Shown here one piece after another: positions 2,127-24,027 of a stretch of DNA of 31,598 bases. The stretch lies in IMG/VR virus record IMGVR_UViG_3300017774_006457, positions 1 through 31,598 of that record; one strand, given 5' to 3'. The stretch's first letter is position 1, and each line of letters begins with the position of its first letter. Made by a program: the position numbers and the translations under genes. The notes under the pieces were generated by a model, which ran no database searches, had not been told where the DNA came from, and saw only the letters and a list, made by a program, of their open reading frames with translations. Origin of the DNA: a virus. Lineage: Duplodnaviria > Caudoviricetes.

Positions 2127-3761
2127 TTAACAAGTTCCAAAATCAATAGTTTGAGTATCTTCTAGAACCATAAAAAATTGACCATCGCAAGTTAACGTAT
2201 TAGAAATAGTACATTGGGCACCTAAATCTATACAATATTGTTCACCATTTGGACCAATCCCATTCATCCCGCAATTTTTTAACTTGGCATAGACACCTGT
2301 ATATGACACAACATAACAATCGCTTGGTGGACATCTTTTGTCTGGATTATCTTTTTTAAATGATCTGCAACCACTGCGAGAACAACAATTCCGATCAGTG
2401 CATCTAACGCTTTTTTCTGCAGAACTACAATCTGCACAACAATTATTCACGGGTCCGCAACTTATGGTTGGAGTTGGGGTTGGACTTGGAGTATTTTTCG
2501 CACATGTTCCACAGCTACATGTTATATATCTACCAGGATCTTTTGGACAACTTTTTTCAGATCGAGCACATGTGCATGTTTTATTAGGGTCATTTGACTC
2601 TTGTTCATCTGCCCAACTTTCGCAGCTCGACGGGTCTTGAAAACAATTTCCAGTCATCTCACTACACTCACATGCGCTTGGCGTTGGAGTCGCACATAAT
2701 TCACAATGTATAAGTCTAGCTTCGTCACCAGGGCATTCAAAGTCACCAGCATCTGCTACTTGTTCTCCGACCTGACATCTTGCTACCCAACCAGGTCCTG
2801 CAGCATAAGCACAGTCGCAGTATGTTACTGTAAAAGTCCATGTTACTGGAGGATTAGAGCAATAGCATTCTTCTAGTGCTCCGTTTTGACCACAATTAGG
2901 ATGAAATTTATCACAAGGATCACATGTATAACCCTTTTTGTCTTTGTTTGCAATTTTGCAGTCGTTAAGTGTTCGGTATCCATTTCCATTTCCACATTCT
3001 TTTGGCTCATGCACACATTCTTCACAACGTACAATTGGGCAAAATCCTCCCCCTGTGCAAGTTCTAGATTCGCATTTAACACAAAAATCATCTTTACTTT
3101 TTACGCAATTCCAATTACATTGTCCTATTTCATATAAATCTCCTCCGCATCTCTTATCTTTACAATCTTGTGGGCATGTGTTAGTAGGAGTAGGAGTAGG
3201 AGGGGGAGTTGGTCCAATATTAACATCATAGCAATTAGGATTATCTTCTCCATTAGGACATGTACAACTAACGTTTTTACACCAACAATTCAAATAATCT
3301 GGACAACCACCTGAATTTATCCATTTGTCGCAACTTTCGTAAGAACTAAATTGAGCTCCGCAATGAAGCAAGCATTTACATGGCTGTGTTCCTGTAGGAG
3401 TTGGAGTTTTTTTAGGTTCACATGTTCCGCACTGTATATCAGGACAATCTTTTGGACATTTTTTTGTTTTTTGACCAACGCAATCTTCATCTGCCCAACA
3501 ATATGCGCAATTAGTTCCAGTATCACAGTCACAAAAATCTTTGCATGGAGGTGTGCCAGTCCTACAATTCCAACAAGTTCTAGTTTCACAATCCTTTCCA
3601 GAGCAGTCTTCTTTAACACAAATCATTTGAGGGTCATCAAAATAATACAAACCACAATCTCCACAAGCGCATGGAGGCTTAGTAGTCGGCGTAGGATCTT
3701 CTGTATATTCTAAAATTTCAGATATTATTCTTAATAATTCATTATTACGAGATTCGTCCAT
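2127..3761 (-). CDS. Extremely Cys-rich protein with Pro/Thr linkers, possibly virion surface protein
   Basis: 544 aa with dense Cys modules separated by PTPTPT linkers; GTGTAA motif upstream. Confidence 0.75.
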   Translation of the reverse strand: MDESRNNELLRIISEILEYTEDPTPTTKPPCACGDCGLYYFDDPQMICVKEDCSGKDCETRTCWNCRTGTPPCKDFCDCDTGTNCAYCWADEDCVGQKTKKCPKDCPDIQCGTCEPKKTPTPTGTQPCKCLLHCGAQFSSYESCDKWINSGGCPDYLNCWCKNVSCTCPNGEDNPNCYDVNIGPTPPPTPTPTNTCPQDCKDKRCGGDLYEIGQCNWNCVKSKDDFCVKCESRTCTGGGFCPIVRCEECVHEPKECGNGNGYRTLNDCKIANKDKKGYTCDPCDKFHPNCGQNGALEECYCSNPPVTWTFTVTYCDCAYAAGPGWVARCQVGEQVADAGDFECPGDEARLIHCELCATPTPSACECSEMTGNCFQDPSSCESWADEQESNDPNKTCTCARSEKSCPKDPGRYITCSCGTCAKNTPSPTPTPTISCGPVNNCCADCSSAEKSVRCTDRNCCSRSGCRSFKKDNPDKRCPPSDCYVVSYTGVYAKLKNCGMNGIGPNGEQYCIDLGAQCTISNTLTCDGQFFMVLEDTQTIDFGTC

Positions 3762-5830: not shown

Positions 5831-6219
5831 GGGCCCGTACTGGTTTCGATTTTAGAGATCGGAATTAAAATGCAAGTGGAGGTTGAATCGAGGACTCCTT
5901 AAAAAGTTTCAATTTATATTAACTGCCAAAACAGCAAAATATAAAGGTCATATTTCAGCAAGAGTTTCTCTTGTCGAGATGACTGAATCTGTAGCCTAAG
6001 TTCTACAGCGTGACTACCTTGACACATCTATTGGATAGTTGCGTAATTAGATGTTTGAGCATAGGAAGTTTTTTTATTCTTTTTATATTCAATATTCAAA
6101 ATAAAATCGCTGAGTATGTTTGTTTTTTATCTATACAAGGCTAAAAACAAAAAGAACTAAACTTGTAGTATTTCAATTTAGATTTTTAAAAGACAGAGGT
6201 TCAATTCCTCTCGGGTCCA
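5831..6219 (+). ncRNA. ssrA: tmRNA
   Basis: 5' GGGCCCG pairs with 3' CGGGTCC-A including G3-U Ala determinant; 5' CTGGTTTCGA; T-arm AGAGG-TTCAATT-CCTCT; tag ORF 5925-5999; CCA not encoded. Confidence 0.93.
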
Positions 6220-6285
6220 AGTAAACGAATCCCTGTGTCTGCATTTTTATTAGATAATACTATAAAATCCACATATAATGCTTAT

Positions 6286-6837
6286 ATGAAGATAAGAAAA
6301 ACAAAAATAACTTGTGCTCAATGTGGCAATGAACACGAAATAAGGCAAAGCGATTATAATAGAAAAATAAAATCTGGACAAACTAAATTTTATTGTAGTT
6401 TGAAATGTTCTGGAAAAGCTGACTATAAAAATAACCCAATTAAACTAGAAAGAAATAAAGGCAATATTAATTTATTAAAAGGTTACGAAGCTAATAGATT
6501 AGATGAATATAGCCCATTTAAATATTCATTAAATAAAGCTAGATCAAGGAGCAAAGAAAAGGGACAAGAGACAGATTTAACTCTTGAATATTTAAAGCAA
6601 CTTTTAGAAAAACAAAACGGTTTATGTTCATATACAAGTATAGTTTTAGAATTACCTAGAAGCTCTCAAGATGAAGATATAAAGAAAAGTCCAACTAAAT
6701 TAAGTCTTGATAGAATTGACCCAAATATAGGATACATACAAGGAAATGTTGAATTCGTATGTTATTGCGTTAATGTTATGAAAAATGACTTTTCTAAACA
6801 AGAAATGGTAGATTTTATTAAAAAAATTAGAAATTAA
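6286..6837 (+). CDS. HNH/EndoVII-like endonuclease with N-terminal zinc finger (free-standing homing endonuclease-like)
   Basis: CAQCG...FYCSLKC finger; QNGLCSYT...SLDRIDPNIGYIQGNVEFVCYCVNVMK nuclease motif; ATG 6286 preferred to GTG 6235. Confidence 0.8.
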   Translation: MKIRKTKITCAQCGNEHEIRQSDYNRKIKSGQTKFYCSLKCSGKADYKNNPIKLERNKGNINLLKGYEANRLDEYSPFKYSLNKARSRSKEKGQETDLTLEYLKQLLEKQNGLCSYTSIVLELPRSSQDEDIKKSPTKLSLDRIDPNIGYIQGNVEFVCYCVNVMKNDFSKQEMVDFIKKIRN

Positions 6838-15653: not shown

Positions 15654-15681
15654 ATAGATAATTACACATTAATATATGATA

Positions 15682-17379
15682 TTATTCTACTAAAGTGGGT
15701 AGCACTGTTGTTTCTTCAGTAACTATAATTGACTTATTATTAAAAGTCACATTTTTAAATTTATTTCTAAATTTTTGTTGGAATTTAATAAATTTTTTAA
15801 GATTTTTATTTAAAAATAAAACGTTTGGTAAATTATTCTTTAATATATTTGAAATTTTAGAGTACAAAAGAAATTTAGCGTTTTGTTGTGCTTTTTGTAT
15901 AGCTTTTTCTTTATTAACATCTTCACCTCTGCCTAATACTCCTAGTAAATTTCCTTGATATACTTGAACTTTTAAATCATTTATATTATTAAAAGTTTTG
16001 TTGAAGTTAAAAGCTGAAATAGTTTCATTTATTTTTGAATCTATAGGGTCGTAATTTCCATATCCAGAATAAACTACATATAGCATATGATCTGTACCAG
16101 CAATTTTATTAAATAAAGGATTTATTAATTCTATTGAAAAAGGCGTACCGCTAGGTATAATTCCATTCCATGTCCCTGTATTAAATTTTTTTGAAGCAGA
16201 ATATAATCCACTATACATTTGATAAAAAGCAGTCCCACTAATTGGCGTATTTTGTTTTAAATGTCCGTCAGCATCTATTCTATAGGGGTGATACCAATTT
16301 TTAGGATAAAAAGTTCCAGTATCATTAGTTGTATAACCCGAATAATTATATATGTCAAAAGCTGAAGCGTCTTTTCCAGATTCAAAAAAACGTATACCTG
16401 AAGGAAATGTTGCTTCAATATTTTCAGAGCTAGGGAAAATTGCTTTAACTGCTATCCCACTTGTAATTTTTTCATTTATAGTCTTTGGTGTTTGATAAAT
16501 AAAATTTTTCTGTCTTGTTACGGTATATTGCTTAGACCCATGTACTAAAGTATTACATAGTCCAGTTTCAGCTTTATGAGGAGAAATATAACATATTCTT
16601 TCATTTTGTCCAATTCCAGTTGAAATTAAAATTATACCTTTAAAATCTTGTTCGCCAGTATTAAGATTTTTTGTAAAACATGTTATTTTAGTCGGAACAT
16701 TATAAGCATTAAAATTATTTGTTATAACGGTTGTTGGATAAGTTAAATAAAAATTATTCAATAATGTAGTTGTCGATTCTCCAGGCAATCGATTTTCTTT
16801 CCAATTAACAAAATTTGTATTTGACATTGAATTTTTACCACTAAAAACGTTTGTTAAATTAATTGTTTTAGAAATAGAAATTTGACCAGTTTTATCAAAA
16901 CTAAATCCACTTAATATATTTTGATTTTTTATGCCACTTTCAAAAGAAAATCTAGCGTAAGGAAAAGATTCATTTGTACCTTTAAATTTTAAAATTTCTA
17001 AATTTTTGTTTGAAAAATCTATGAATTGATTAAAATAATTTTCATTGTTAATTAATTTATTATCTACTTTAGACAGATCACAAAAAGATAATTGCCCAAA
17101 AAGAGGAATTCTTTTTTGCACTTGAGCATTAAAGATAACGGAATCTGGTACTAATTTAAAATTTTTAGTTACAGTTAATTCAGTGCTTGTTGTTTCTGCT
17201 GAGATAAGATTAACAACTGCTTTTTTACTTTTAAGAGAGCCTTCAGATACTATATCTAATTTAAACTTTTTAACTTCATTGCTCGTAGATTCTACATTAT
17301 CTACAATAGAATTGCTTGCAGCTATATTTGCAGCTGGCAGACCTAGTAATTGTAAATCTTCTTCGTTTATTAAACTCAT
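15682..17379 (-). CDS. Ribozyme-associated hypothetical protein, paralogue A1
   Basis: 565 aa; shares GQLSF, ICYISPH, YSGLY...FNTGTWNGIIPSG with 21574-23091. Confidence 0.85.
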   Translation of the reverse strand: MSLINEEDLQLLGLPAANIAASNSIVDNVESTSNEVKKFKLDIVSEGSLKSKKAVVNLISAETTSTELTVTKNFKLVPDSVIFNAQVQKRIPLFGQLSFCDLSKVDNKLINNENYFNQFIDFSNKNLEILKFKGTNESFPYARFSFESGIKNQNILSGFSFDKTGQISISKTINLTNVFSGKNSMSNTNFVNWKENRLPGESTTTLLNNFYLTYPTTVITNNFNAYNVPTKITCFTKNLNTGEQDFKGIILISTGIGQNERICYISPHKAETGLCNTLVHGSKQYTVTRQKNFIYQTPKTINEKITSGIAVKAIFPSSENIEATFPSGIRFFESGKDASAFDIYNYSGYTTNDTGTFYPKNWYHPYRIDADGHLKQNTPISGTAFYQMYSGLYSASKKFNTGTWNGIIPSGTPFSIELINPLFNKIAGTDHMLYVVYSGYGNYDPIDSKINETISAFNFNKTFNNINDLKVQVYQGNLLGVLGRGEDVNKEKAIQKAQQNAKFLLYSKISNILKNNLPNVLFLNKNLKKFIKFQQKFRNKFKNVTFNNKSIIVTEETTVLPTLVE

Positions 17380-17383
17380 GATT

Positions 17384-17448
17384 AACCAAATATTCTAGCA
17401 TCGTAAACCTCTTGTACTGTGGTTTTTTATCTAGCCCAGAATTTTCAT
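17384..17448 (-). ncRNA. Predicted 65-nt circularised exon of ribozyme copy 1
   Basis: Lies between omega-G (17449) and UGGUU site complementary to IGS GACCG; ends pair (AUUCUGG/CUAGAAU). Confidence 0.55.
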
Positions 17449-17700
17449 CATTTTGTTATCGTTAAATTGTTTATATTTAACATCTTTATATTTCTATAAA
17501 GTTCAGACTATATCTTCTTTTATTTCTAAAAGTTTGGGCGCTCTTGGACAATTTTATTGTTGGTACTCAATCGTCTAGTCGTTACACCTTACAGCCTATC
17601 TTTCCCAGCTGTCTTGGCTCGGTATTGTCTTCCATTTTTTAATGGTTAAGATTTCCACCGAATTCACCCAATAACGGTCATTTAAATTTTAAAAAGAACT
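17449..17700 (-). ncRNA. Group I intron ribozyme core (IA-like) lacking an upstream exon, copy 1
   Basis: P3 UUGGGUG/CGCCCAA, P4 UUCGGU/ACCGAG, AAGGUGUAACGACUA, GAAGAUAUAGUC (P7 GACUA/UAGUC), GNRA-capped P8 and P9, ends AACAAAAUG. Confidence 0.9.
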
Positions 17701-17708
17701 AATCTTTA

Positions 17709-17734
17709 TTACACTTAATTTTTTTTATGTGTAA
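17709..17734. promoter_or_regulatory. Back-to-back GTGTAA promoter motifs
   Basis: TTACAC 17709-17714 (minus, ribozyme) and GTGTAA 17729-17734 (plus, 8 nt before ATG). Confidence 0.65.
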
Positions 17735-17742
17735 CATAATTT

Positions 17743-18300
17743 ATGCCTAACTTATTACCTTTTAGAGACTACAGCGAGCATGAAGTCATTAATTTATATT
17801 CTTGTAATACAGTTGCAACAAAGGGAAGTTTGGTAAAGCTAATTACGCCTGTTGGTAAAAATGTTTTAAATCTTTCAGATATAAGTGTAGGAAATAAATT
17901 CCCTAATACAATAAATAATAATTTTGATATAATTGGCCAAGTAGAAATTGTAACAGCTTATAATGATGTGCCTAGTGCTCTAGGATTACTGCTTTATGAT
18001 GTTCGTGAAACTGATGAAAATGGAGAGCGTCTAATTTTTAATCCAAGAAAAATGGCAGAAATAAATGCTGTTTTACCAATAATTCATGCTGTACCAATTC
18101 TAACAAGAGGTATAGTCTCAATTAATGATATTGATGAAACTGCTCGATTAGGTGGAGCTGGTGGAGCTCCACAACTTGGTGCAGCTGCTTATGTAGGAAA
18201 TAATGGAAGAATTGCTGTAAATGGTATAATTAAAATAGGTAAATTTTTAAGCACAAAAGATTCTAATGGATATTGTTTAATGAAAGTGAATTTTGATTAA
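17743..18300 (+). CDS. Hypothetical protein, paralogue B1 (possible capsid decoration/cement protein)
   Basis: 185 aa, highly similar to 23473-24027; beta-rich; structural role is inferred only. Confidence 0.7.
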   Translation: MPNLLPFRDYSEHEVINLYSCNTVATKGSLVKLITPVGKNVLNLSDISVGNKFPNTINNNFDIIGQVEIVTAYNDVPSALGLLLYDVRETDENGERLIFNPRKMAEINAVLPIIHAVPILTRGIVSINDIDETARLGGAGGAPQLGAAAYVGNNGRIAVNGIIKIGKFLSTKDSNGYCLMKVNFD

Positions 18301-19034
18301 TGAGCATTTGTTGTAAAAGATCTACTGGTTGGAGCGCTACAAGAAGTGTTCAAAGCTTATATGTTGCAATCACTTCTATATCTGCAAAAACTAGTCTTAA
18401 AACAAAATGCGTAAGTAATACTTTACCCGAACATTCTTGGATAACAAATCCACCAAAAACAATTTGTAGTCGAGCTTTTATAAGTACTCATGAACAATCT
18501 TGGTCTGGAGATAGCATTGGCTCTGATTTAATAGATGGATTTATTGTTACTCCTTCTTTTAATTATTCTTATCTTTTAGATGCTTCAACTGGATCTTGGA
18601 CAAATTCATCACCATATTCAATATCAGCTGGAGGATGTTTGAATACAAGTGAAATTACTAATATACAAGTTGTATCTGATAATACAGAATGTTTAAACAA
18701 CAACGGACCAGAATGCTCAAGAACTTTATTTTCTAAAACAGATAATTTTAAAGTAAAGGGTTGGAGTTTAAATGATTATAAAGAAGTGACAAATGGATAT
18801 GAAGTATATTCTTATTTAATAGATATTCAACTTACTTGGGAAGCAAGAGTTAGAGTTTTTGAAACAAAATTAAGTTTATCTAATACAAACCATGATTGTT
18901 GCCCAGATCAAGGAGACAATTTAAGTTATGCTTCTTCGCCTAACACAGATGATACCGCTAATTTAGATTCAATTGTTAATTCTATAAGAACTATGCCGTA
19001 TTTTATGATAGCTCTTATGGCTAATAAAAAATAA
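18300..19034 (+). CDS. Ser/Thr/Cys-rich hypothetical protein
   Basis: 244-aa ORF coupled via TAATG. Confidence 0.7.
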   Translation: MSICCKRSTGWSATRSVQSLYVAITSISAKTSLKTKCVSNTLPEHSWITNPPKTICSRAFISTHEQSWSGDSIGSDLIDGFIVTPSFNYSYLLDASTGSWTNSSPYSISAGGCLNTSEITNIQVVSDNTECLNNNGPECSRTLFSKTDNFKVKGWSLNDYKEVTNGYEVYSYLIDIQLTWEARVRVFETKLSLSNTNHDCCPDQGDNLSYASSPNTDDTANLDSIVNSIRTMPYFMIALMANKK

Positions 19035-19044
19035 AAATCAAATT

Positions 19045-21060
19045 ATGGCAAGGTACGCGCCTCCTAATTTTTCTTACCCACCATATCCATTACCACCCGA
19101 TGAGGGAAGTGGGGTTATTAAACTCATTCCATGCTCATCTGTAGCATGTTCTTTACCACCTAAAAACTGTTATGCATTTGGTTTAATCCCCTACAGAGAA
19201 TGCTATCAAGATGGAAAATGCAAATATTGGTATGAAAATTCTTTTAAAGAACCTATTTGGACAGGTGGAGAAGCAAGCATTTTATGGGAAGATGATCCAA
19301 AAATTGGTGCTTGGATATATAAGATGTCTTTTTCAAGTAATTTTCGTGGTATCAAAGAAAAAACATTAAAACCAGATCCAAATTTTCCTAGTATTGTAAC
19401 TTTTGTATGTAATCAACTCAAAAAAGTTGAAGTTAATAGCACTTGTAAATTCGACCTATATCACAAAAGTTTACCTGTAGTCTATTGGGCTAATAAAAAT
19501 GTGGGAACAACTCCTCCTGAAATGGCAGGAATTATTAATAAATATGGAGGTGCTTTTCTAACAGCAGATAGGCCATACCAACTGTCTTCCATCGACCCGC
19601 GCTATCCTGCCGCTATTAAGATAAGATTATATTCTGATGTTAAAAATTTAACCCCTTACCCTCCTCCCCCACCACCTCCGCCTCCACCACCTCCGCCACC
19701 TCCACCACCTCCACCTCCAGTTGCTTGTTCTAATTTTTACTTATCAAATGTTAGTTGGACAAATGTTGATAATTGGGAAACGGTAACAGGTATAAAATTT
19801 GATAGATCGAAAGGGTTTAGATATATGGGTATTCAAAGATGCCCAAACCGTATAATAGGAGTTGATCCAATTTCTTTCTGCGCGGGTGGCAAAGTAGATC
19901 CTAGTTTTCCATGGCTTCTCGGATGGGTTAAAATGTTGCATTGGTTGGATTCTGATGGAGTTTTACATTACATAAAACCTCGTGAAAATGTTGCTTTAGT
20001 AAACTATGGAGGAGAAAATTCTATAATAAAAAAGTATACTGGAATTGGTACAATAGCACCTTCTAAAGAAGGAATAATGGCAATGTGTAAAAAATATAAA
20101 ATAAAATTTATAGGATCTATATTTAATGAATACTACTGCCGTCAAACAAATGAACAAGTTTTTACGGGAACTATTCAAGAAATTCAAAATGTTGTTGTTC
20201 CACCCCAACCTCCTCCACCTCCTCCCCCGCCTCCACCGCCACCAACTTCGGTTTTTTGTGACTATCCTTTCTTACAATTTGTTAATTGGGCTGGAAAACT
20301 TTCTAATGATGATTTTAGAGACTTAACAGGTAGAGTTTTAAGATCTGCATACGATAGTCCAGGTTTTGCAAATTGTCCCAATTTTATTACGAGGAGTAAA
20401 CTAACTGGACTGTGTCCTGCTCGCCAAATAAGTAATAAATTTCCATGGCTTATTGGATGGGTTAGATATTTACATTGGAGAGATTGGACTTCAAACTTTC
20501 ACGAAGAAAAAACTATTAAACCTATTGCTATAATATATAATGATAACATAAAAAAAGCATTAGGCGATGAAGCTGATGTTTTTTATAAAGATATTAAAAC
20601 ACCTTCTCAAAACGAAATAGAAACAATGTGTAGAGATCTTGGTATAGAATATGTAGGATTTGTGGGTCTTCCAGAAACTTGTACCGCAACTAGACAAAAA
20701 GTATTTTCAGCAGGTATCATACGAATTAAAGTGAATCTAATACCGCCTTGTTGTTTTTGCTCTTCCCCTCCGCCTCTGTCATCTCCACTCCTAATTCCGC
20801 CTACACAAACATCACGAATTTTAAAAACAAGCTATTGCGGAACTCTTGGGTATATAACATACCATCCAAGAGGATTTTTAAATAAACAATATCCAGAAAT
20901 AATTGGTTATGCCATGTGTAGTGGAATGAGAAATGAGTGTCCAATTGTAGAAACTATTGGAGATGCTGCTAAGTTAGCAGGTATTTTTAATTGTGCGTGG
21001 ACTGTATATGGTAAGGAATCAGGAACTCCAACCCTAAGCCTCATTGCTCGTAGTGGATAA
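19045..21060 (+). CDS. Poly-proline-linked multidomain protein with internal domain duplication
   Basis: Two long poly-Pro tracts, each followed by a domain with CPN...C...FPWL(L/I)GWVxxLHW. Confidence 0.8.
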   Translation: MARYAPPNFSYPPYPLPPDEGSGVIKLIPCSSVACSLPPKNCYAFGLIPYRECYQDGKCKYWYENSFKEPIWTGGEASILWEDDPKIGAWIYKMSFSSNFRGIKEKTLKPDPNFPSIVTFVCNQLKKVEVNSTCKFDLYHKSLPVVYWANKNVGTTPPEMAGIINKYGGAFLTADRPYQLSSIDPRYPAAIKIRLYSDVKNLTPYPPPPPPPPPPPPPPPPPPPPVACSNFYLSNVSWTNVDNWETVTGIKFDRSKGFRYMGIQRCPNRIIGVDPISFCAGGKVDPSFPWLLGWVKMLHWLDSDGVLHYIKPRENVALVNYGGENSIIKKYTGIGTIAPSKEGIMAMCKKYKIKFIGSIFNEYYCRQTNEQVFTGTIQEIQNVVVPPQPPPPPPPPPPPPTSVFCDYPFLQFVNWAGKLSNDDFRDLTGRVLRSAYDSPGFANCPNFITRSKLTGLCPARQISNKFPWLIGWVRYLHWRDWTSNFHEEKTIKPIAIIYNDNIKKALGDEADVFYKDIKTPSQNEIETMCRDLGIEYVGFVGLPETCTATRQKVFSAGIIRIKVNLIPPCCFCSSPPPLSSPLLIPPTQTSRILKTSYCGTLGYITYHPRGFLNKQYPEIIGYAMCSGMRNECPIVETIGDAAKLAGIFNCAWTVYGKESGTPTLSLIARSG

Positions 21061-21087
21061 AATCTATTACAGTTTTAAATGATTAAA

Positions 21088-21570
21088 TTATATACATCTC
21101 AAGCGGACTGTCACTATTTTAGGACCCCCACTACCTGGAGTATTCTTTTGTTCGTTACTTAGTGGAGAAAGAGCGCAACCATGCAAAGGTTTGCAGCATG
21201 TTGCACCAGACGTGTTTTTAAGACTATATTCTACCTCTTTTGGTCCAGATATAGGAATTGTAGAACCCACTAGATTTCCATCGTTAGCTGATTTACCACA
21301 TGCTGCACATCCATCATTGACTACCTTTGAGTATTCGTAATATTCTAGCTCAATTTTCTTCTTTTCTTCTACACTTACATTGCATTTACAATTTTCAGGA
21401 GGACATGTATCATTCCCAAAAGGACCAGTTGATGTATTTCCAGTAGAAATATATTCAGTGACACTTTTAACAGGTGTATATTCGGCCTGGCATAGCATAT
21501 AGGTAGAACATGAAGGCGTAGGAGTAGGGGTAGAGGTAGGGGTAGAGGTAGGGGTAGGGGTAGTAGGCAT
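21088..21570 (-). CDS. Pro/Thr-repeat, Cys-rich small protein
   Basis: MPTTPTPTSTPTSTPTPTP N-terminus; 3 nt after the paralogue A2 stop with AGGAG. Confidence 0.7.
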   Translation of the reverse strand: MPTTPTPTSTPTSTPTPTPSCSTYMLCQAEYTPVKSVTEYISTGNTSTGPFGNDTCPPENCKCNVSVEEKKKIELEYYEYSKVVNDGCAACGKSANDGNLVGSTIPISGPKEVEYSLKNTSGATCCKPLHGCALSPLSNEQKNTPGSGGPKIVTVRLRCI

Positions 21571-21573
21571 AAA

Positions 21574-23091
21574 TTAACTCCTTGTTAAGAATTTTTTCAA
21601 TTTTCTAAATTTACGATTTTCATATATAATTTCTGGAATATGTGTTTTTATAATACTACTAATTTTATTTAATATATTATATCTAAAATTTATTTTACTT
21701 TTAATAAGAGCTGAATCAATATCTTCGCTATATGCTCTTCCTGTAGATTTAATAGAACAATCGTAATCTACTAAAACTTTTGTATCTAAAACTTGGGCTT
21801 TTTTATTAATTTCACTAGGAATTATATTCGCGCCGTATGTATATAAACAATTAAATATTTTTTTATCTAATGCGTCTTCTGAAGAATATCCTGTATATAA
21901 AACAGATAAAGTATTATTCACTCCATACTCTTTGCCTCTTCCTAAATCGAATCCAATTATTTCAATAGAAAAATTTACTCCAGAAGGTATAATCCCATTC
22001 CAAGTTCCTGTATTAAAAGTTTTATTTGCGTTATAAAGGCCACTATACAATTTATAAAAATATGTATCTTTTATAGGAGTAGTTTGTTTTAATTCAGAAT
22101 TAGATAAAACTTTATGTAAAGAAGCATCGTCCAATCCATTTTTAGATTCATCAAATTGTATGCCTGTCCATTTTATTTTTTGAGATAAGTATTCTGATCC
22201 TAATTTTAAAGTAGGTAATATAATACCGCTGGGAATTCTCCTATATTGAACAATATTAGAATTAACAAATTTTTGAGTTCCAGTATCAAGATATTTTCCA
22301 GTGAATGGTTGAGCTTTATATACAACTGTATTAGTAAAGCCAGTGGTATAATCATGAGGAGAAATATAACATATTTTTGAATTTACTCCGTTGCCAGTGC
22401 TAATAACTAGTAATCCATCTATTTCTTCTATTCCACTAAAAGTATCGTATGAAGGATTAATTTTTGTAGGAATATTTAATTTATTAAATTGATTTGCAAA
22501 TAATGTATTTGGATATGGTAAATAGTAATTGCCTGTTTTTAAAAAGTTTTTATTAACAGAGGCAATTTTTTCTCCTGTTAAAATATTTTCATGAATAAAA
22601 GTTTTTTGAGAATAGACTCCTTTAAAAGAATTTGAATAACCATTTAAAGTATTTGAATTTGATATACCAGAATTATATGTAAAACGGCTAAAAGAAAGGT
22701 CTTTATCTACACCAGGAATAGAATATAAATCTTTATTTAAATGAAAAGGTTTAAAATAATCATTATTTTCTGGAGAATATGAATATTTATCAGATTTAAA
22801 AAAACTTATCTGACCAAGGAATGGAACTTGAGAATTGTATTCTGAATAATAAAAAGGGTTTTCAGATCCTAATTTAAAAGATTGGTAATTAAAATTATTT
22901 GTTCTTTGCCCTCTTTCTAAAGTTTTTGTTGTAATAAGTGGCTTTGGATTTCTTAATGTGCCAATATTAAAAATATCTAATTTTGAATTTTTTAAATAAG
23001 GGTGAGTAATAGGATTCTGATCAGTAAATTGTATTTCTGAGTCAGATATAATTTGACCAGCTAATCCTAATTTTCGAAAAGATTCTTTCAT
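21574..23091 (-). CDS. Ribozyme-associated hypothetical protein, paralogue A2
   Basis: 505 aa; paralogue of 15682-17379. Confidence 0.85.
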   Translation of the reverse strand: MKESFRKLGLAGQIISDSEIQFTDQNPITHPYLKNSKLDIFNIGTLRNPKPLITTKTLERGQRTNNFNYQSFKLGSENPFYYSEYNSQVPFLGQISFFKSDKYSYSPENNDYFKPFHLNKDLYSIPGVDKDLSFSRFTYNSGISNSNTLNGYSNSFKGVYSQKTFIHENILTGEKIASVNKNFLKTGNYYLPYPNTLFANQFNKLNIPTKINPSYDTFSGIEEIDGLLVISTGNGVNSKICYISPHDYTTGFTNTVVYKAQPFTGKYLDTGTQKFVNSNIVQYRRIPSGIILPTLKLGSEYLSQKIKWTGIQFDESKNGLDDASLHKVLSNSELKQTTPIKDTYFYKLYSGLYNANKTFNTGTWNGIIPSGVNFSIEIIGFDLGRGKEYGVNNTLSVLYTGYSSEDALDKKIFNCLYTYGANIIPSEINKKAQVLDTKVLVDYDCSIKSTGRAYSEDIDSALIKSKINFRYNILNKISSIIKTHIPEIIYENRKFRKLKKFLTRS

Positions 23092-23096
23092 AGTTA

Positions 23097-23158
23097 ATCC
23101 AGTTAGCTCCTCAACAACCTCTGACCTTTTAAGAGATTTTACGTGATTAGCTTACTAA
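23097..23158 (-). ncRNA. Predicted 62-nt circularised exon of ribozyme copy 2
   Basis: Lies between omega-G (23159) and UGGAU site complementary to IGS GUCCA; internal AAUCUCU/AGAGGUU stem; ends pair. Confidence 0.55.
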
Positions 23159-23393
23159 CATTTTGTTAACGCTAAAAAGTTTACTTTTAGCATCTTTACA
23201 TCGCTGTAAAGTTCAGACTATATCTTCCTGCTTTCGCAAGTTTGGGCGCTCATGGGCAATATTATTGTTGGGACTCAATCGCCTAGTCGTTACACCTTAC
23301 AACCTATCTTTCCCAGTTGTCTTGGCTCGGTATTGTCTACTTGAGATTTCCACCGAATTCACCCAAAATGGACTATTTAAATTTAAATGAACT
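23159..23393 (-). ncRNA. Group I intron ribozyme core (IA-like) lacking an upstream exon, copy 2
   Basis: Same core as copy 1 with compensatory changes in P6a, P7.1, P8, P9, P9.1; ends AACAAAAUG. Confidence 0.9.
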
Positions 23394-23401
23394 AAACATC
23401 T

Positions 23402-23461
23402 TTACACATTTTTTAAAAAAAAAGCTTTTTTATTTTTACTTTTTTTTATTTTTTTGTGTAA
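23402..23461. promoter_or_regulatory. Back-to-back GTGTAA promoter motifs separated by A/T tracts
   Basis: TTACAC 23402-23407 and GTGTAA 23456-23461. Confidence 0.65.
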
Positions 23462-23472
23462 TATATTTTGCT

Positions 23473-24027
23473 ATGCCAAATTTAATGCCATTTAGAAATT
23501 ATAGCGAATATGATATTATTAATTTATTTGCATGTTCAGTAGAAGCGACAAAAGGGACATTAGTAAAACCAATACAAAAATTAGAAAAAAATCCTTTAAA
23601 CTTATCTCAAAATGCTCCTGGAGCAATATATTCAAACGCAGTAAATAATTTATTTGAATTGACTGGACAAGTAGAACCTATAGCAAATTATAATGATGTA
23701 CCAACTGCTTTAGGAATTTTATTGTACGACGTAAGAGAAAAAGATGAAAATGGTGAAAAATTAATTTTAAATCCAAGAAAAGCGGCAGAAATGAATGTAG
23801 TACTACCTAAAATACATGCTGCGCCAGTATTAACTAAAGGAATAGTGCTTATAAATGATATAGATGTATCTAATCATGGATCTGGCGGTGGAAATCCATC
23901 TATAGGCGATGCCGCCTATGTAGGTGATGCGGGAAAAATTGCTACAGACGGATTAGTTAAGATTGGAAAATTTTTAAGCCCTATTGATAGTAATGGTTAC
24001 GCTTTAGTAAAAGTAGATTTTGATTAA
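23473..24027 (+). CDS. Hypothetical protein, paralogue B2 (184 aa; start corrected)
   Basis: MPNLMPFRNYSEY aligns with MPNLLPFRDYSEH of B1. Confidence 0.8.
   Translation: MPNLMPFRNYSEYDIINLFACSVEATKGTLVKPIQKLEKNPLNLSQNAPGAIYSNAVNNLFELTGQVEPIANYNDVPTALGILLYDVREKDENGEKLILNPRKAAEMNVVLPKIHAAPVLTKGIVLINDIDVSNHGSGGGNPSIGDAAYVGDAGKIATDGLVKIGKFLSPIDSNGYALVKVDFD

Follow-up and report, generated by a model that had tools for sequence, protein, structure and literature searches.

The DNA analyzed here, referred to below as the window, is a phage contig of 31.6 kb (31,598 nt, 29% GC) that encodes ribonucleotide reductase-like, nucleotide-metabolism and sigma-factor-like proteins together with a tmRNA, some of these names having been read from translations. 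It contains two copies of a cassette, 5.7 kb apart, in each of which gene B lies on the plus strand and, divergently from it, a group I ribozyme core is followed by a short non-coding stretch and then by gene A.

In copy 2 all of the elements other than gene B2 (23473-24027, plus strand) are on the minus strand. A promoter-like TGTAA motif (23400-23408), the putative start region of the ribozyme transcript, is followed by a GUUCUUU-family 5′ element, GUUCAUUU (23385-23394), with invariant alignment columns, and by the internal guide sequence UAGUCCA (23369-23375), which lies directly 5′ of P3 with neither a P2 nor an upstream exon. The core extends from P3 to the terminal omega-G (23159-23366) and includes the P7 strands at 23288-23284 and 23220-23216. 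Next come the predicted exon 2 (23097-23158), the predicted 5′ splice site (23096-23097), which follows the exon and precedes the AUG of gene A2 by 5 nt, and gene A2 itself (21574-23091, 505 aa).

Copy 1 has the same arrangement on the minus strand, with a near-invariant GUUCUUU-type element (17693-17701), the guide UGACCG (17675-17680), which pairs with UGGUU/A (cut after UGGUU), the core (17449-17671, omega-G at 17449) and the predicted exon 1 (17384-17448). The AUG of gene A1 (15682-17379, 565 aa), a paralogue of A2, is 4 nt after the splice site, and gene B1 (17743-18300, plus strand), a divergent paralogue of B2, lies upstream on the opposite strand. The lengths given in a preliminary description of the locus, 62 nt (minus strand, 23158-23097) and 65 nt (17448-17384), are correct; each stretch starts after the terminal G and ends with the U that forms the U.G pair.

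Elsewhere in the window the tmRNA (5831-6220, plus strand) is followed directly by an endonuclease-like ORF (6235-6837, plus strand; PHROG matches, E 8e-26), and the two are possibly a homing pair. Cys-rich and Pro/Thr-repeat proteins of no known family are encoded around the cassettes (2127-3761 and 18300-21570), and similar Cys-rich genes occur downstream of A or B in relatives. In two RNA runs (X4 and X5, see below), contigs from a related phage join window position 15677 to 24027 (short side 31 nt, with six letters between), suggesting that there are relatives lacking the whole 8.3-kb double cassette and that gain or loss of the block may occur.

A ribozyme family upstream of gene A

Both window cores score above the gathering threshold of 50 bits with RF00028 (52.6 bits for copy 1; 61.3 bits, E 4.6e-15, for copy 2). 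Searching viral and metagenome contigs by pattern and by protein yielded 29 distinct complete loci of this kind (each designated by L and a number); two incomplete loci (L053 and L092) and a more distant intron (L002) were left out. The exon set comprises 28 members, two of which are the window copies, L089 having been dropped because its exon is identical to that of L073. The only Rfam model that matches the loci is the group I model, and group II domains (D5/D6 at the 5′ end) were not found. The P7 strands forming the guanosine site are invariant across 23 aligned loci, and the other hallmarks of group I ribozymes are present: a P3-P7 core, a terminal G at the 3′ splice site (G17449 in copy 1, G23159 in copy 2), a P1 with a U.G pair, and P10. 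What is missing is an upstream 5′ exon with its 5′ splice site, the matching site being located downstream instead; P2 is also absent between the guide and P3.

The core pattern also retrieved many phage tRNA genes containing ordinary group I introns (L040, L043-L046 and others); canonical phage group I introns are of the P7.1/P7.2 type and belong to subclass IA. The ribozyme pattern was not found in GTDB genomes by exact matching, and in cultured phages only a quarter of the core was matched. A broader 3′-end pattern gave 122 viral loci, of which the best 34 distinct ones comprise seven known members of the family, the rest being other introns.

In 27 of the 29 loci a TGTAA-type motif precedes the guide G by 29-37 nt, and in the remaining two by 57-60 nt. 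The GUUCUUU element is nearly as constant (28/29 loci), 14-25 nt before the guide and in most cases 15 nt downstream of where the TGTAA motif starts. No partner covarying with it was found, and a sigma-70 scan gave no signal above shuffles. A homologue of B is present within 900 nt upstream in 20 of the 29 loci, and is divergent in 19. Because only about 30 nt separate the guide from the TGTAA motif and a divergent B gene usually follows, there is no space for a conventional first exon.

The association with gene A is strict. An A-like reading frame follows the ribozyme in all 29 loci, and every one of the 16 loci fetched via protein A contains the ribozyme, compared with one of the 32 fetched via protein B. 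One viral contig carries at least four cassettes (L103, two at L109, and L110) with three distinct guide types among them, each cassette having its own exon and A paralogue. In most of the listed loci among those fetched via B, this gene is situated between those for a probable prohead protease and the major capsid protein, a position that makes B a probable head decoration protein and the B genes of the cassettes displaced paralogues of it.

Protein A belongs to a family without assignment, with 75 relatives at 50% clustering and a conserved basic C-terminal helix. It has no PHROG match, no Pfam match above noise and no PDB sequence match, one of 40 members giving the Pfam uS5 N-terminal domain at E 0.2; Foldseek returned nothing at E ≤ 0.001 in the PDB and viral libraries, and there was no Atlas match. 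It was not found in cultured phages, and in viral contigs a single-protein scan was empty and an alignment-based scan recovered the loci. No endonuclease match was found with PHROG or Pfam, although the gene is sited where an insertion in L1 would be. Predicted structures (mean pLDDT 75.5 and 66.3) gave KH- and dsRBD-like alignments with a best Z of 4.5 for the whole protein, and a list rich in dsRBD-like folds with a best Z of 5.6 (rmsd 1.7, 54 residues aligned) for the C-terminal part, both below the background of 7-8, and we treat the likeness of these models to KH-/dsRBD-like folds as a lead only. The A2 model also contains a very long beta-hairpin (residues 247-298, two strands of 23-25 residues) that has no significant fold match and appears to resemble those of oligomeric tubes or pores.

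Guide pairing, splice-site order and the exon junction

To identify P1, only position was used to define the guide, which was placed 9 or 10 nt before P3. In 24 of the 28 loci a site no more than 45 nt before the gene A AUG allows a perfect P1, with three Watson-Crick pairs and the U.G; of the remaining four, three have a G.U within P1 and L079 has a mismatch. When guides were permuted among loci a mean of 9.5 perfect P1s was obtained (maximum 18 in 20,000 trials); such p-values overstate independence because the loci are related, and the safer figure is a count on a tree built from the core only, with guide and exon excluded, on which the guide type changes 14 times, the site type 14 times and the pair jointly 15 times. 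There are seven guide types, and the clearest coordinated changes are in L106 (GCGU with ACGU) and L103 (GCCA with UGGU). The copy 2 guide pairs with UGGAU/UA at 23101-23095 (cut after UGGAU), and the minimum free energy fold of the copy 2 precursor yields this P1 unprompted. A canonical upstream P1 was considered and rejected, as the invariant upstream AGUU stays constant while the guide changes. The predicted cut falls 2-13 nt before the AUG in 22 of the 28 loci (median 7 nt) and 20-51 nt before it in the other six.

The 3′ splice site also covaries with the guide. P10, formed between guide position −1 and exon position +1, is paired in 25 of 28 loci versus 17.4 under permutation (p 5e-5), by U-A, U.G, C-G, A-U and G-C pairs in different loci, suggesting selection for ligation at the 3′ splice site. 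The two exon ends are held in a fixed register, with U+2 opposite G−4 in 24 of 28 exons, giving a junction consisting of a 4-nt loop closed by the U.G (6 nt if this pair is discounted) on a 4-bp stem, beyond which position +6/−8 is mostly unpaired. The proposal in the preliminary description that pairing of the ends juxtaposes the splice sites gains strength from covariation of this stem, in which 66 of the 84 cells at +3 to +5 are paired compared with 35.8 under permutation (maximum 52), and the same register recurs in 18 of the 23 short exons versus 2.4% of shuffles. The exon ends of L095, L080 and L086 were set by hand as the last site before the AUG, the imperfect site of L079 was kept, and the terminal G of L103 was moved 3 nt by analogy with L109; the P1 test is independent of these hand-set ends.

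Splice sites in reversed order, spaced 60-192 nt apart, thus recur across the loci; the circle itself is a prediction. Judged from the sequences, the stretches of 62 and 65 nt are genuine exons belonging to a group I ribozyme with reversed splice sites, and the covariation of P10 and the end stem fits selection on exon ligation. Second guide-matching sites are present near the main one in L003 (exon positions 54 and 60), in L110 and L111 (7 nt before) and in the window (23064), and could give alternative ring sizes, 95 nt in the case of window copy 2.

Six freshwater or lake RNA runs (X1-X6) were examined as contigs. One contig in X6 (230 nt, depth 3.6, no mismatches) joins 23062/23158 with one ambiguous letter, which on the RNA strand is the omega-G, G23159, joined to U23063 directly after GGAU. 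The site involved (GGAU/UA, cut after GGAU; 23063-23064, minus strand) is inside gene A2 and is the nearest of three such sites in 1522 nt of gene A. This joint is the expected product of an attack by the omega-G at a guide-paired site, a reaction distinct from exon ligation and of a kind described for ordinary group I introns in the available text of PMC13168695. Since it falls exactly at the omega-G and a second guide-matched site, the ribozyme appears to be active in nature, and the joint supports both site assignments; it comes from one low-depth contig, for which a DNA deletion is an alternative source. In X1 and X3 unspliced contigs cover the exon, and X1 and X2 contigs end at 23083 and 23081, stopping 13-15 nt before they reach the predicted cut, which is at most a weak hint.

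The preliminary description had predicted that the two stretches are released as small rod-like circles. The conserved length and rod fold described below agree with this, but no head-to-tail exon joint is present in the contigs of the six runs, which could easily miss a 62-nt circle; nor is there a copy 1 back-splice joint in the listed contigs, whose pieces span exon 1 only partly. We consider it very likely that the ribozyme is active, and probable that the predicted ring is formed.

Size and fold of the predicted exons

The exons fall into a short class of 60-80 nt (n = 23, with 22 of them within 60-71 nt) and a long class of 135-192 nt (n = 5). Circular folds of the short exons are single-hairpin rods in 21 of 23 cases versus 19% of shuffles, so that length and fold passed the test of conservation among homologues that had been proposed for them. 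The sequence, by contrast with this constant shape, is poorly kept (median pairwise identity 52%), variable positions being mostly within stems, and exon length tracks A length poorly, as illustrated by L007 with 65 nt and an A protein of 700 aa. Constant size and shape with free sequence suggest that it is the shape that is recognized, the recognizing partner being either a protein or the ribozyme itself.

The pairings of the ends previously quoted for both window exons are present in their predicted folds, although in copy 1 AUUCUGG with CUAGAAU is the second stem, the junction stem being formed by positions 2-5 with 59-62. A hairpin fold had been described for both; it is better than those of shuffles for exon 2 (−15.5 kcal/mol and z −2.65 as a linear molecule; −9.6 kcal/mol and z −2.02 as a circle; 1000 dinucleotide shuffles) but not for exon 1, which has a rod fold in the family junction register that is no better than shuffles (z +0.18 linear, +0.16 circular). 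The exon of L082, the nearest relative of copy 1, likewise folds no better than shuffles, and only seven of the 28 exons reach z < −2 on their own. With the ends held fixed, the interior beats shuffles in 20 of the 23 short exons (median z −1.46).

An inner stem using a shared AGAGGUU motif had also been proposed, but this motif occurs in only two of the 28 exons, those of the window, is lacking in L082, and is at chance level, some 7-mer being shared by 26% of shuffled versions of the two exons. What recurs instead, and had been missed along with the long-exon subfamily and the strict link to gene A, is an inner stem with a bulged U. In exon 2 this motif occupies 23111-23146 (minus strand), where a short stem with the bulged U (strands 23146-23137 and 23116-23111) is accompanied by an A-rich loop and a distal hairpin. 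In a subgroup of ten sequences including copy 2 pairing of the bulged-U stem beside the A-rich loop extends to 96% of cells, four of its five pairs have changes on both sides, and none of 500 shuffles does as well. A descriptor of the motif matches 15 of the 23 short exons versus 4.4 expected (2-7 for other bulged bases), a figure to be read with the provision that it was drawn from the same sequences and that some of the 15 matches are in other registers. A mixed subgroup of five exons aligned poorly, and when 22 short exons were aligned together by sequence, RNAalifold called no pair; the model built from this alignment (R1) is for that reason a sequence-only one and was not used.

The long exons (L110:1238-1429, L081:632-771 on the minus strand, L111:1624-1763, L105:2313-2447 and L106:2311-2450) have conserved interiors with multiple stems. 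Those of L110, L081 and L111 are 67-75% identical and share a conserved 3′ domain in which a similar bulged stem is found, whereas identity among the corresponding A proteins is 36-49% across their N-terminal 170-190 residues. Three of the five long-exon loci adjoin tRNA clusters.

In the window and nine related loci, five of which have long exons, no exon matches an Rfam family or contains a self-cleaving motif, as a viroid-like or retrozyme circle would. The rings show no sign of coding capacity, having no common length modulo 3 and no common frame, and 12 of the 28 lack any AUG frame. With both strands of the remaining window considered, the longest matches are 11 and 12 nt, which is shuffle-like (p 0.81 and 0.44), and with the lack of conserved sequence this speaks against the guide role that had been suggested for the circles.

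Predicted reaction and relation to known systems

We propose the following course for copy 2. Transcription would start about 25-30 nt before the guide, in the vicinity of the TGTAA motif, and the guide pairs with the 3′ end of the exon, as the covariation shows. By group I chemistry, free guanosine would then cut after U23097, freeing a gene A mRNA that carries an extra G and has a leader of 5 nt, and the freed U, aligned by P10 and the 4-bp end stem of the exon, would attack after the omega-G, closing a 62-nt ring in the ligation to which the covariation points. The end stem would then mask the bases that bind the guide and presumably hinder reverse splicing, and the omega-G of the spent ribozyme may attack a further guide-matching site in the mRNA, as in the joint seen once. 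A bent rod of about 65 nt with its bulged U and A-rich loop could bind protein A, and the complex could conceivably be part of a virion-associated particle with B, the head-protein paralogue.

Our preferred reading, which the sequences leave finely balanced, is that a small closed rod would be made by back-splicing and that its conserved shape is likely recognized by the protein encoded next to it; whether selection acts on the ring itself as a structured RNA is a point on which we are evenly divided. Protein A is the obvious candidate for a partner because it is strictly linked, is encoded by the same transcript and has the conserved basic C-terminal helix, and we tentatively suggest that it may bind the putative ring. 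More speculatively, the cassette could act as a circular-RNA factory of the phage, in which one reaction gives both a structured ring and the mRNA for its partner protein, with several such pairs per genome and possibly built into the virion beside the B paralogue. Were this true, the cassette would represent a new type of ribonucleoprotein system, and would be the first group I gene dedicated to making a circular RNA.

The main rival explanation, possible although we do not favor it, is that the ring is made as a by-product of maturation of the gene A mRNA, which would lose a hairpin beside its AUG and gain a 5′ G, the shape of the exon serving splicing only, perhaps by docking onto the core where the missing P2 would be. 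The closeness of the cut to the AUG in most loci, the absence of P2, the variable exon sequence and the finding in the available text of PMC12270912 that a stem-loop at the junction suffices for engineered systems are all in keeping with this. However, the cut is 20-51 nt away from the AUG in six loci, covariation of P10 would be superfluous if cleavage alone mattered, and the conserved multi-stem interiors of the long exons exceed the needs of junction geometry. Rather unlikely is cutting with no ring, by hydrolysis at the omega-G and attack of the omega-G at a guide-matched site, such that the exon is released as a linear molecule and the ribozyme is rejoined to the mRNA. The sole joint seen is of this type, and terminal-G attack is documented for group I introns (PMC13168695, available text), but the same joint is expected after normal two-step splicing as well, and P10 and the junction stem covary as expected if the exon ends are ligated.

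That the ring instead acts by base pairing, as a guide or antisense RNA, or serves as a template that is translated by the rolling-circle mode, seems to us very improbable. Variable sequence on a constant scaffold and several cassettes per genome, four on one viral contig, are what a guide might show; its variable positions, though, are mostly in stems, matches to the remainder of the window, on either strand, are no longer than in shuffles, and for a template both the lack of a shared length modulo 3 and the 12 rings without an AUG frame are unfavorable. Least credible is a dead or ordinary intron that has lost its upstream exon, with the downstream match and the RNA joint arising by chance or from a DNA deletion: DNA can occur in RNA libraries and the joint is from one contig, but it connects the omega-G to a guide-matched U with only 1 nt of shared sequence, the compensatory changes in P1 are repeated, the core is invariant, and the exon is retained in all 29 genomic copies examined.

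Among known systems, the preferred reading of a ring closed by back-splicing finds its closest parallel in engineered designs in which an intact ribozyme makes circles, TRIC (PMC12270912) and end-to-end STS (PMC10457212). As far as the available text of these reports shows, they share with the phage loci a whole group I ribozyme upstream of the circularized sequence, a guide that pairs with the U at its far end, and a stem-loop at the junction, which helps circularization in the engineered designs. They differ in that the phage ribozyme is natural and what is cut away is the mRNA for a conserved gene, and in that TRIC and STS use an extended anticodon arm with a 7-nt loop (U third) and a stem of at least 5 bp, whereas the phage junction has a 4-nt loop and a 4-bp stem.

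Compared with canonical phage group I introns, the ribozymes have the same P3-P9 core, P7 guanosine site, omega-G, P1 U.G and P10, but lack an upstream exon and P2, have their own promoter-like motif, and have the 5′ splice site downstream. The lariat-capping ribozyme, according to the available text of PMC8637638, is also derived from group I, lies before an ORF and reshapes the 5′ end of the mRNA, but it acts by one-step branching with no exon; retention of the omega-G, P10 and exon in the phage ribozyme points to a predicted chemistry of two-step splicing rather than branching. Natural group I back-splicing has been described for the ND5-717 intron of mushroom-coral mitochondria (Chi et al. 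2019, PMC6545197), which in the text available is of normal type but giant, its P8 containing most of the genome, and restores a protein gene when it is spliced; in the phage loci it is the gene that is permuted between the 5′ splice site and the guide, and the exon is small and non-coding.

The circularly permuted (CP) group II ribozymes (Roth et al. 2021) also have reversed splice sites, typically less than 100 nt apart, and produce a small circle whose function is an open question (PMC8637638). In the portion of that report available they are bacterial, use group II chemistry with a branched product and are said never to abut an ORF, unlike the phage ribozymes, which have a group I core, lie from a few to 51 nt before a single gene family and have a conserved exon shape. 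Natural RNA permutations are listed in PMC10085705, the available text of which names no such group I case, and in the literature searched, largely open articles, no description of a permuted phage group I family was found. The cassettes, carried by uncultured freshwater phages, are predicted to be a natural version of a circularization trick so far engineered, and to be new among group I ribozymes. Because the predicted circle goes together with a single protein family and keeps its shape, its function is directly testable. If confirmed, nature already uses the intact-ribozyme circularization recently engineered for RNA therapeutics, offering compact ribozymes (about 240 nt) without P2 and 28 natural solutions for guide and junction from which to learn, and group I introns gain a counterpart to the permuted group II ribozymes.
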